64,000 bases of DNA from Candidatus Versatilivorator sp. GTDB taxonomy: Bacteria; Acidobacteriota; Terriglobia; Versatilivoradales; Versatilivoraceae. Numbering within the stretch: position 1 is the stretch's first letter; each line of letters starts with the position of its first letter. The DNA lies in contig OZ242296.1 of assembly GCA_965207735.1 (NCBI GenBank), positions 1,184,001 through 1,248,000 on the forward strand. The letters are read 5' to 3'. Below the pieces are notes generated by a model that saw only the letters and a program-made list of their open reading frames with translations, did no database searches and was not told the DNA's origin. Of the stretch, positions 52,665 to 55,683 are shown piece after piece. Made by a program: the position numbers and the translations under genes.

Positions 52665-53190
52665 CGTCGCTTCGCCTCCCCATGGGCTCACGCCCACGGC
52701 TACCTGCTGCCGCCGCTCCGCGGCTCGATGGGTCGCCCGGGCGTTCGCCCGGGATTTTCAATTGCCAACAAGTGTCGCCCCTGCCCTGCCGGGCAGATCA
52801 TCCGAGCGTGAAACAGGGTTGTTTCAGGCAAGTCCCGCCCCCTCCCTGTCGTGCGGATCATTCGAGAGTCAAACAATCAGAAATCGATAATCCCTTTGTG
52901 ACCTTGGTATCCCGTCGCGGTTAACCTCAACGCCTTAGTGTCCCTTCGTCGTTCTTCGTGCCCCTTCGTGGATAAGTCTTTTGTCTTTCGTCTCTTGTCG
53001 TTTGTTTCAGACAAGCGAGGCCCCCGCCCCCCACGACGGGGCGGATCATTCGAAGGTGAAGAAACAGGGTTGTTTCAGACAAGCCGGGCCCCCGCCTTGG
53101 TGTGCGGATCATACATAGAGTGAAACAATCAGAAATCGACCATCCCTTCGCGACCTTGGTATCCCGTCGCGGATAACCTCAGCGCCTTAG

Positions 53191-55185
53191 GTAGAGTCGA
53201 GGGGAGGCGCGCCGGCCTTAGATCGAGGGAGTCGCTGTTGCCGGCGGCTTTCGCCACTCGCCGGTGCCTCAATCTCGTTCCTCGCTGCGTTTCCTCGCCC
53301 CCGCTCGTCAAACCGGACGTGCGGTTTTCCCGCATCCGGCTTTCAGTCAAGATCATGCCTTCGCCCTCGGAAGGCTCTGTGGCTTCGACCCCAGGCAAGT
53401 GAGTCCATAGGTTTTCCATAGTCTCTCGTCCGAGAAGCGCACACTCCCCCCGGTCCTCACCTTGTGCTTCCGACAGAGCCACTGACGCAGCCGCCCGCCC
53501 GCGTGGCGGTCGATCGCTCGGTAGGCCGGGCTCACCTGCCCCAGAACGAAGTAGTTCGCCCACCCGGTCATCGCCCGGTTCAGGTGTTCTACCATCTGTC
53601 CTCGAAGCAGCGTCCCGTTCCTCGGCGCCGTCCACTCGCTGATCTTGCGGCAGATGCTCTGGACGCTCGCCTGGCTGGGTCGTGTGCCGATGTAGGCTCC
53701 TTTCCCTTTGGGGCGATAGTTGCGTCCGATGCGATATCCCAGAAACCCCATCGGTTCCTCCGGACACCGCAAGCATCGGGTCTTCCGCTCGTTGACCGGT
53801 AGCTTCAGCTCCTCCATGATCCGCTTGACCGCCGTCAGCATCTCTGCCGCCGGTGCCCTGCCGAGTACACGGAAGTCATCCGCATAGTTGACGATCTCCG
53901 CACAGAAGCGCCGGGCATATCCCAGCACCTTCCAGCCCAAAACGAAGCGCCGCATGTAGAGATTGCTGAGCAACGGTGAGATCGGGGCTCCTTGCGGTGT
54001 CCCCTTCCGCTCCCGGCGCCCTCGGTTCCGGCGGCGTCTGCCACCCTTCCCGTCGTCCTCCTCCACCGGCATCTCCAGCCATGCCTTGATGAGCTTGAGC
54101 ATCCTCCCGTCACTCACGCGCCGGGCAATGCTTCGAATCAGCTCCGCATGCGGAATCTCGCCGAAGTAGTTGGACAGGTCGCCGTCAACCACCTCCTGGT
54201 AACCCCTTTGCAGGAGTTCATGCACGCGTTTGACCGCGTCGTTGGCACTCCGCCCCCGCCGATAGCCATATTGCTCCGGTTGCAGGTCCGCTTCGAAGAT
54301 CGGCTCCAACACCAGCAAAGCCGCCGTCTGCGCTACCCGGTCCCGTATGCAGGGTATGCCCAAAGGCCGGAACTTGCCGGGCTGTTTCTTCGGGATCAGC
54401 ACCTGCCGCACCGGCTTCGGTACGTAGGTTCCTTCCCTCAGATCCCGCGCCAGTTCCCCCAGCCAGCCCTCCACCCCATACGCCTCGATGTCCTTGAAGC
54501 CCTCCCCGTCCACCCCGGCCGACCCGCCGTTTCGGCGTACCTGTGCCCAGGCTTCCTTCAGAAAGTCCTCTCGCCACACCTTGTCCGACAGCGCATGAAA
54601 CCGCCGCTTGGGGTCCTCCTTCGCTTTCGCATGTAGCATGGTCTGGAATTTCCGAACCCCCTCTGACCCTGTTAGACTCTTGTCAGTGGCCACGCCTTGC
54701 CTCCTTTCCATGCTGCTCTCAACTCAGGGTCCCTTCCCTCCACCGGCGTTACCCGGCTTCTCCGGTACTACCGACCCATCCGCCACCCTGACGGCCCGGC
54801 CTGCCCCTCGCGGGGTCCCGGTTGATGTGTGCCGCATCTCCCCCAGGGCTTCCCGTGTTGCTGCCTTCTTCCCCTTCCATGCGTGCCAGCGTCACTACCC
54901 CGACGGAAGCGGATCGGTGCCCGCGTCGCTCTCTTCCCCATCCGCCAACGGCCTTCCCCTAAAGACAGGAGGGTCGGCTTCCGTATTGTCCGTTTCGAGG
55001 CCTGCTCGACGTTCACTCGCGTTCCGGCCCGCATGCTCGCTGAGCCGCCCTTGGCGGCCCTTGACGCCAGAGTGCTTCAGACCATTTCGTTACCTCCATG
55101 ATCCGCCCTGGCTGCTACCAACCGGAGCGACAGTTGTTGGGCGGGGTTCGCACCCGCCAGAAGAAGGCGCCTTTCCACGGCGCAC
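53191..55185 (-). mobile_element. Full-length group II intron (IIB-like, no endonuclease domain)
   Basis: 5' GTGCGCCGTGGAAAGG, 3' ..CTCTAC; domain V 53342-53310 with AGC triad and AC bulge; removal restores the S repeat sequence GCGCCTTAG|TGCCCCTTCGTGG. Confidence 0.95.
53353..54711 (-). CDS. ltrA: Group II intron reverse transcriptase/maturase
   Basis: GSAGVDG, IPK..RPLGIP.IRDRVAQ, DGDLSNYFGEI, GTPQGAPISPLLSNLY, YADD, FLGY, GWANYF (domain X); no HNH. Confidence 0.95.
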   Translation of the reverse strand: MERRQGVATDKSLTGSEGVRKFQTMLHAKAKEDPKRRFHALSDKVWREDFLKEAWAQVRRNGGSAGVDGEGFKDIEAYGVEGWLGELARDLREGTYVPKPVRQVLIPKKQPGKFRPLGIPCIRDRVAQTAALLVLEPIFEADLQPEQYGYRRGRSANDAVKRVHELLQRGYQEVVDGDLSNYFGEIPHAELIRSIARRVSDGRMLKLIKAWLEMPVEEDDGKGGRRRRNRGRRERKGTPQGAPISPLLSNLYMRRFVLGWKVLGYARRFCAEIVNYADDFRVLGRAPAAEMLTAVKRIMEELKLPVNERKTRCLRCPEEPMGFLGYRIGRNYRPKGKGAYIGTRPSQASVQSICRKISEWTAPRNGTLLRGQMVEHLNRAMTGWANYFVLGQVSPAYRAIDRHAGGRLRQWLCRKHKVRTGGSVRFSDERLWKTYGLTCLGSKPQSLPRAKA

Positions 55186-55683
55186 TGCCCCTTCGTGGAT
55201 AAGTCTTTTGTCTTTAGTCCTTTGTCGGTTGTTTCAGGCAAGTGGGGCCCCTGCCCTGTCGGGTAGATCATCCGAGGGTGAAACAGGGTTGTTTCAGACA
55301 AGCCGGCCCCCGCCCTGGTGTGCGGATCACACATAGAGTGAAACAATCGGCAATCGACCATCCCTTCGCGAACTTGGTACCCCGTCGCGGTCAACCTCAA
55401 CGCCTTAGTGCCCCTTCGTCGTTCTTCGTGCCCCTTCGTGGAAATGTCTTTTTCTTTTGTCTTTTTAGGTTGTTTCAGACAAGCCGAGCCCCCGCCCTGC
55501 CGTGCGGATCATACATAGAGTGAAACAATCTGAAATCGACCACCCCTTCGCGAACTTGGTACCCCGTCTCGGTTAACCTCAGCGCCTTAGTGCCCCTTCG
55601 TGGTCCTTCGTGCCCCTTCGTGGATAAGTCTTTTTCTTTTGTCGTTTGTCGTTTGTTTCAGACAAGCCGGGCCCCCGCCGGCG

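Follow-up and report, generated by a model that had tools for sequence, protein, structure and literature searches.

A mosaic of dispersed repeats in the birA–coaX spacer of Candidatus Versatilivorator and a group II intron probably retrohomed to a fixed repeat site

Homing of group II introns into multicopy elements is known already. In Thermosynechococcus elongatus, the TeI3/TeI4 introns insert into insertion sequence (IS) elements and also between genes (Mohr et al. 2010, PMC2882425), and in Sinorhizobium meliloti the introns RmInt2 and RmInt1, which lack an endonuclease (En-minus), home to an IS end with a DDE transposase (PMC4615759). For dispersed repeats, the closest described systems are the repetitive extragenic palindromic (REP) sequences, bacterial interspersed mosaic elements (BIMEs) and REPINs with their REP-associated tyrosine transposases (RAYTs), together with TIRtrons (Di Nocera et al. 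2013, PMC3733652); REPs also act as targets of IS elements (Tobes and Pareja 2006, PMC1525189). Here we describe the spacer between birA and coaX of Candidatus Versatilivorator sp., which lies in a stretch of 64,000 nucleotides (contig OZ242296.1, positions 1,184,001 to 1,248,000; hereafter the window, whose positions are used unless a genome is named). The spacer is 3019 bp long (birA ends at 55684 and coaX starts at 52664, both on the minus strand) and combines some 1 kb of short repeats, set like a patchwork between two housekeeping genes, with a mobile group II intron. The repeats comprise three modules, R, S and A. It is probable that the spacer is a mosaic of genome-wide repeats, partly derived from the ends of GxxExxY genes and likely copied in as blocks, and that the En-minus intron likely retrohomed to a fixed site in S through its exon-binding sites EBS1 and EBS2.

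The known systems match this locus in several respects and depart from it in others. Like the T. elongatus introns (PMC2882425), those described here have many close relatives per genome, form families with diverged EBS and targets, and include more copies without an open reading frame (ORF) than with one. Unlike in T. elongatus, one clade targets a gene-less dispersed repeat from GxxExxY flanks, the retargeting can be traced over 13 congeners and at least 14 EBS types, and the intron-encoded protein has no endonuclease domain. With RmInt2/RmInt1 (PMC4615759) the introns share En-minus homing to a multicopy element, tolerance of EBS2 mismatch and head-to-tail copies (here one, locus L071). The bias of RmInt2/RmInt1 towards the lagging-strand template is clear here for one lineage of the same genome (lineage B), which homes to IS1380 inverted repeats in the RmInt2/RmInt1 manner, whereas the target of the birA–coaX lineage (lineage A) is a mosaic repeat. 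The repeat itself resembles REP/BIME/REPIN and TIRtron families in its hundreds of extragenic copies in mosaic clusters and in a cognate gene bracketed by inverted copies (PMC3733652), and resembles REPs in serving other mobile elements as an insertion target (PMC1525189). Module A fits the REP/BIME pattern directly; in contrast, the gene bracketed by S is a GxxExxY gene of the PD-(D/E)XK family and not an HUH transposase, R has no gene that we could find, and the invader is a retroelement. Module A contains the Acido-Lenti-1 RNA motif (RF01687; Weinberg et al. 2010, PMC2864571), described as still of unknown function in a 2026 preprint (10.64898/2026.10.21.760802), and occurs here as a DNA repeat. 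In the literature covered, which included few subscription papers and no bioRxiv supplements, we found no description of subfamily-specific inverted flanks of GxxExxY genes, of their gene-less derivatives, or of introns that target such repeats.

The intron occupies 53191–55185 on the minus strand (1995 nt, ends GUGCG...CUAC). Its junction CCTTAG|TGCCCC and its co-orientation with birA and coaX are as the sequence-only reading of the window had described them. Two Rfam models match it, RF02003 (81 bits, 55017–55159) and RF00029 (40.1 bits, 53191–53344), and the terminal, domain 1 (D1) and D5–D6 features of a group II intron are all present. The encoded reverse transcriptase (RT)/maturase (53353–54711, minus strand, with an NYADD motif) has an uncertain start codon, at 54711 or downstream, and scores 328.9 bits with TIGR04416 (cut-off 300). 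Pfam detects RVT_1 and GIIM only and no endonuclease domain, which makes this an En-minus intron; the long D6 and the NYADD motif suggest class E/F. Splicing from the birA–coaX transcript is plausible and not needed for coding, since the intron is intergenic and no reading frame has to be restored. Co-orientation with the operon as a selected trait was rejected, because the seven lineage A copies between co-directional genes comprise four sense and three antisense insertions.

The source genome (G000, 5.26 Mb) was compared with 13 congeners and 27 other genomes, numbered likewise. It contains 45 related intron 5' ends belonging to three lineages. Lineage A consists of 13 near-identical ORF-bearing copies, nine of them identical, which implies recent mobility. 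Lineage B comprises 28 ORF-less copies and one with an ORF, inserted in the terminal repeat of an IS1380 element and of shorter elements derived from it, and lineage C has three copies in another, 14-copy repeat. One truncated lineage C copy is an 84-nt 5' stub at the proper target (G000 4261025–4261108). In sequencing run X1, possibly from the source sample, contig depth is about 89–99 over the intron and 6–8 over its flanks (about 11–15x); no run spans the birA–coaX locus, and the repeat joints are confounded by other copies.

The target of lineage A is narrowly defined. Nine of the 13 copies follow ATCCACGAAG-RRRCA, two follow close variants and two lie outside the repeat. Thus the proposal that the repeat supplies many targets held well, with 11/13 copies in a module that makes up just 0.6% of the genome. 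EBS1 (UGUCUUU, 54961–54967, minus strand) pairs with exon positions -1 to -7, at this site by four Watson-Crick and three G-U pairs, and the predicted EBS2 (GGACAA, 54986–54991, minus strand) pairs with positions -12 to -17 at five of the six positions; both were assigned by covariation across sister introns and a pairing table. The 5' exon is the second part of the occupied module S2 (55186–55229), with intron-binding site IBS1 at 55186–55192 and the predicted IBS2 at 55197–55202, 4 nt apart, and the 3' exon side is the first part of S2 (53128–53190). EBS2 has been suggested to matter for homing rather than splicing in IIE/IIF introns (PMC3753933).

Covariation across introns supports these assignments. 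In 93.5% of the 31 introns compared, one EBS1 column forms a Watson-Crick pair with exon position -4, and all four pair types occur; the adjacent columns pair with -3 and -5. The head-to-tail copy L071 was dropped from these counts. A second element, which follows GAAAC and reads GGAC, GGAU or GGGC, varies together with ATCC or GCCC farther up the exon. Permuting exons among 14 EBS types gave p=5e-5 for EBS1 and 1e-4 for EBS2, values that overstate the case, as the permuted introns are kin and not independent. Since minimum free energy folding of D1 was uninformative (z=0.55), the EBS assignments rest on covariation.

Each S module carries 10-nt repeats, and lineage A uses a single position among them. 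In G000 the first 10-mer is occupied at 9/158 EBS1-compatible sites, the second at 0/173 and the third at 0/129 and 0/28. These counts contradict the suggestion that every 10-mer is a potential IBS1. They also displace the empty sites listed earlier (52938/9, 55408/9, 55590/1 and 32467/8), which are third-10-mer junctions; the true empty equivalents lie 20 nt away, at 52958/52959 in S1, 55428/55429 in S3 and 55610/55611 in S4, and at 32023/4 and 32447/8 in a second R/S array of the window. That array, at about 31960–32560 in the opposite orientation (array A of the sequence-only reading), has an 87-bp exact block in common with the birA–coaX array. The occupied S does have one 10-mer, as had been noticed, yet this is no sign of alternative IBS1 use: the allele is present 12 times, and in seven cases the site is empty and followed by CTAA. 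A perfect EBS1 complement (CTAAAGACA) is indeed present within S2 at 55217–55209 on the minus strand but goes unused, AAAGACA being occupied at 0/554 genomic sites and 0/49 tail sites.

Retargeting can be followed in the congeners. Among the 94 intron matches listed, 90 loci were fetched, of which five were unreadable; 12 of the 85 introns read have their 5' end in an S-type site, in 6/13 genomes, excluding L069, which sits in a sister GxxExxY repeat. In G004 the site variant GACACA dominates over GGGSCA (49 vs 19), and all four introns have EBS1 UGUGU(A/U)U and lie at GACACA; in G000 the proportion is 14 vs 159, and 0/13 lineage A copies follow a GACACA site. The S-sited introns form one clade with 94/96 support, just under the threshold of the tool, in a tree that includes the EBS columns. 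Among the 5' flanks listed for metagenomic relatives (from 79 loci), 0/33 are of S type, and within this set S-targeting looks limited to the clade of this genus. A further lineage (EBS1 UGUUAAU, 19 copies read; L059, L079, L080 and L336–L349, in G005, G008, G009 and G011) lies mostly after TA(A/G)CCCATCTTTAACA, another target repeat. The head-to-tail intron L071, from G011, has the 3' end of another intron as its 5' flank, and so does the metagenomic L284.

Strand bias is typical of En-minus introns (PMC4615759), and lineage B displays it, with 24/30 occupied vs 47/133 empty sites (p=1e-5). The window holds an ORF-less lineage B intron (EBS1 UGAGAAA) at 27934–28802 on the minus strand, in an IS1380-type terminal repeat. 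It is abutted by a transposase ORF that ends near 28900 and is presumably IS1182-like. Empty IS1380-type ends, the targets of lineage B, lie at 57530, overlapping the nadC start region, and at 27703.

The repeat modules are dispersed, intergenic and abundant. Profile hidden Markov models over the whole G000 genome matched 331 R and 340 S, far more than chance would give, and 133 A; the hits form 448 clusters that make up 1.1% of the genome, so the modules are not confined to the window. Adjacencies (RS 194, SR 87, AR 35, RR 11) reveal a grammar of A-R-S-(R-S)n, although most RS arrays have no A; the R doublets that had been taken as a building principle are present at birA–coaX and rare genome-wide. 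None of the 146 RS-containing arrays lies inside a gene called by a home-made gene caller. Matches to R or S occur in 12/13 congeners and 0/27 other genomes searched, and the 80 holders of the exact R motif listed (of at least 113) carry Ca. Versatilivorator(aceae), Terriglobia or Acidobacteria titles, except for one Acidimicrobiia bin. Arrays typically end on the right at a conserved TGTTTCAGRCAAG (...CAAG), while their left end is diffuse. R has 7-bp TGTTTCA/TGAAACA termini, such as a miniature element (MITE) of a DDE transposon might have, and a 6-bp hairpin, and S likewise contains a short conserved hairpin; orphan left R ends are mostly array termini (60/69 viewed). Target-site duplication of R was seen neither at the three polymorphic junctions examined (of 50 collinear pairs) nor at birA–coaX, and the ends are not sharp.

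We next traced the origin of the modules. In G000, a truncated GxxExxY gene is bracketed by inverted halves of S, namely the 10-mer half. The encoded protein is a member of TIGR04256 (139.5 bits, cut-off 35) and of Pfam PF13366 (PDDEXK_3); a sequence search of the PDB returned no hit and thus no solved relative. The congeners supplied 30 GxxExxY loci; 27 of these fall into four subfamilies, and the three unclassified ones were dropped. A subfamily-specific flank motif stands on at least one side in 27/27 and inverted on both sides in 22/27, and the EVYAV.GAA subfamily carries the S motif in 9/9 cases, on both sides in 6/9. Similar inverted flanks of the CCAC(G/A)AAG type were found at most of 13 loci of GxxExxY relatives in other Acidobacteriota genera (e.g. 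L241, L243, L244 and L246–L248). These sequence comparisons identify the 10-mer half of S as the inverted end-repeat belonging to a single GxxExxY (PD-(D/E)XK) subfamily. About 100 GxxExxY fragment matches are scattered across G000, many adjoining R or S, and none is full-length; R is often followed by motifs of other GxxExxY subfamilies in place of S.

Module A (52680–52767), which the sequence-only reading had missed, consists of the Acido-Lenti-1 motif (52680–52725; RF01687, 42.1 bits, above the gathering score) and a hairpin tail, and is REP-like; a separate search gave 121 hits in G000. It adjoins 12/30 congener Y1_Tnp loci, among them the nine strongest, and mostly stands inverted on both sides there; the associated Y1 protein scores as an IS200/IS605 transposase, below the REP-transposase cut-off. 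Judged from its genomic neighbours, A thus behaves as a repeat at the DNA level that flanks genes for Y1 transposases. Module R was found at 0/30 of these loci, where S never appears as inverted flanks. Two candidate partners of R were rejected: no RAYT flanked by R exists in G000 or at the 30 congener Y1 loci, and the 30 GxxExxY loci gave no R hit (0/30). The proposed search for a module-flanked nuclease thus found GxxExxY for S and the Y1 transposase for the Acido-Lenti-1 module, and nothing for R. The sole Y1_Tnp hit in G000 (L001, about 2227208–2227438) is flanked by a different GC-rich repeat, which is also a module in congener mosaics.

The closest kin of each module indicate how the array was assembled. 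It had been read as a tandem-repeat array, of which the repeats stand and the tandem growth does not. The birA–coaX array and distant loci have exact stretches in common, 167, 87, 86 and 84 bp long (S1 lies in the 167-bp block, identical to an array at about 2.49 Mb of G000), while the longest exact repeat within the array is 31 bp. For every window module tested (three S, seven R), the closest relative lies outside its own array, elsewhere in the genome. Across the genome, just 5/107 S and 4/154 R have their nearest neighbour in their own array, where chance predicts 1.0 and 1.5; some local duplication therefore takes place, on a small scale. If a founder R-S unit had multiplied on the spot as an ordinary tandem repeat, through slippage or unequal crossing-over, before the intron arrived, this would agree with the 182-bp period found by Tandem Repeats Finder (90% identity, 55287–55679), with the one unit at the locus in the closest congener, and with an in-array identity about 3 points over background. 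It would also place the closest relatives of each unit next to it, which is not what was found; in-place tandem growth is largely refuted and very unlikely. The spacer is instead a hotspot of independent accretion: its ortholog measures 26–44 bp in G001, G004, G009 and G011 and 82 bp in G013, is a single A-R-S-r unit of 318 bp in G002, contains 376–549 bp of different modules in four other genomes, holds a decayed GxxExxY gene (L235) within 939 bp in G005, and carries an ORF-less intron in an S-type site within 1387 bp in G008; in G012 an S-type site holds the 3' end of an intron. The sequence-only reading had further proposed a repeat-retroelement partnership, in which the intron RT copies repeat transcripts and expands or spreads the arrays that supply its targets. 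The occupied array, with four S, is among the longest of the genome, where 221/269 S-containing clusters have a single S (counting the intron-split birA–coaX array twice), and in three lineages (G000, G008 and G012) an intron occupies an S-type site of the same spacer. However, longer arrays simply present more targets, several occupied sites lie in short arrays, and most compatible sites are empty, as counted above. The intron copies have precise ends and brought no exon sequence with them. Moreover, G009 and G011 are complete, single-contig and repeat-rich, with 0/8 and 0/23 of their read introns in S, which argues against RT-driven expansion. We therefore hold a two-way partnership to be highly improbable, and the repeat is likely a harmless landing pad for the intron and not its product.

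Single-stranded transposition offers another route, by which the Acido-Lenti-1 Y1 transposase or an IS91-like rolling-circle enzyme would move A-R-S in the way that HUH enzymes shape REPs and BIMEs. The modules are indeed multicopy, extragenic and clustered in mosaics. A precedes R in the 35 adjacencies counted above and flanks Y1 transposases, R and S have short hairpins, and arrays end in CAAG; the target of IS91 is CAAG/GAAC. Against this, a cognate Y1 transposase with inverted copies was found for A alone and not for R or S, A is missing from most RS arrays, the one Y1 hit of G000 bears a different repeat, and the left array boundary is diffuse. The GTAG/CGTC tag is absent from the R and S consensus, and a search of G000 with PF04986 (Y2 transposase) gave no match, although the control also matched nothing. 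We regard this route as unlikely. The modular repeat-spacer appearance within an operon could also suggest a functional RNA locus, either a guide array like those of CRISPR or TIGR systems or a regulatory leader of coaX, and RS arrays between co-directional genes have a mild orientation skew (46 vs 27). But the 'spacers' are themselves a repeat family and not unique variable sequences, no effector gene accompanies the neighbours birA and coaX, and the orthologous spacer measures a few tens of bp in four congeners and holds unrelated modules in others. In the R hairpin only one pair is compensated (CG 160, TA 28 of 207). An RNA function of the array is accordingly the most remote of the explanations considered.

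Several observations weigh against the reading of a repeat mosaic with a retrohomed intron, in addition to the kinship of the permuted introns. Two modules from one array resemble each other a little more than random pairs do (S 85.7 vs 82.3%, R 78.3 vs 75.2%), indicating some local duplication. Within G000 alone, the occupancy of compatible vs incompatible first 10-mers (9/158 vs 0/73) gives p=0.06, the pairing of EBS1 at the common site requires three G-U pairs, and the two lineage A copies outside the repeat have poor EBS2 pairing. The strand bias of lineage A depends on the model, 7/13 by local skew and 11/13 by two replichores. For R, the loci compared revealed neither a partner gene nor a target-site duplication nor a clean boundary of insertion, and the nuclease activity of GxxExxY is a prediction from Pfam PF13366. 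Splicing, expression and mobility were not observed, RNA run X15 having no cover on birA or coaX.

In the mosaic-and-retrohoming reading, the intron would have inserted by retrohoming, probably at replication forks as with other En-minus introns. The array would have grown through non-allelic recombination between copies of the repeat, or through gene conversion. We infer such non-allelic copying from the shared sequence blocks. A GxxExxY or Y1 enzyme is a candidate whose cuts may have primed the copying, and it would have acted earlier or in trans, since full-length cognate genes of either type (GxxExxY, or Y1 tied to A) were not found in G000. The relation would be one-way: for the intron the repeat would be a neutral target present in many copies, and the intron RT would not be the array builder. 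A broader idea is tentative, and we lean against it while taking it seriously: GxxExxY genes may encode the enzymes of a new class of mobile element, with a PD-(D/E)XK nuclease replacing the DDE, HUH or recombinase enzyme. Each subfamily would recognise and nick or cut its own short inverted repeat, drive homology-based copying and seed hundreds of gene-less derivatives and mosaic arrays, and the intron clade would have re-tuned EBS1/EBS2 to the dominant variant of its host.

The birA–coaX array itself is neutral intergenic clutter in our interpretation, and its value lies in two by-products. GxxExxY is an abundant family of undescribed function, and the target repeat would give this predicted nuclease a concrete substrate and a possible mobilising role. 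In addition, at least 14 natural EBS1/EBS2 variants of nearly one intron exist within one genus, each with its own genomic targets, and this series is a dataset for the targeting rules of En-minus introns, including heavy G-U tolerance and the 4-nt gap between IBS1 and IBS2.

The array follows module A on the plus strand, with boundaries read from the sequence, and agrees with the earlier description of eight R, S modules and doublets joined by GGG, here GGG(T). Six R are full (starting at 52820, 53003, 53071, 55230, 55290 and 55471) and two truncated; the four S modules are 107–127 bp long, and there are three R doublets. Specifically, the 5'-truncated R1 (52768–52815), GGGT and R2 (52820–52875) form the first doublet (52768–52875), followed by S1 (52876–53002), the doublet R3 (53003–53066), GGGT and R4 (53071–53127), together 53003–53127, and the intron-split S2. 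Beyond S2 stand the doublet R5 (55230–55285), GGGT and R6 (55290–55345), together 55230–55345, then S3 (55346–55470), R7 (55471–55527), S4 (55528–55653) and R8, a 5' stub only (55654–55680). Upstream of the spacer with respect to transcription lies birA, for biotin ligase (55684–56676, minus strand; Pfam PF03099/PF02237), and downstream coaX, for type III pantothenate kinase (51894–52664, minus strand; PF03309, E 2.9e-76). A promoter and terminator scan of the locus gave nothing clearly above shuffled sequence. Directly downstream of coaX is a 255-aa ORF with no Pfam match (51130–51897, minus strand).

Several further observations concern related repeats. A short element whose inverted ends are of the GAGCCTTTTGCAAAA type splits the decayed GxxExxY gene L235. 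In the congener records L147 and L170, higher-order units of about 740 bp, each of them R, GxxExxY relics and the Y1-type repeat strung together, are arranged in tandem with high identity, so larger mosaics can duplicate as blocks. Finally, a 338-bp tandem repeat of 98% identity occupies 63218–64000 and runs past the window end, and a repeat similar to it by eye follows the truncated GxxExxY gene at about 2.249 Mb of G000.

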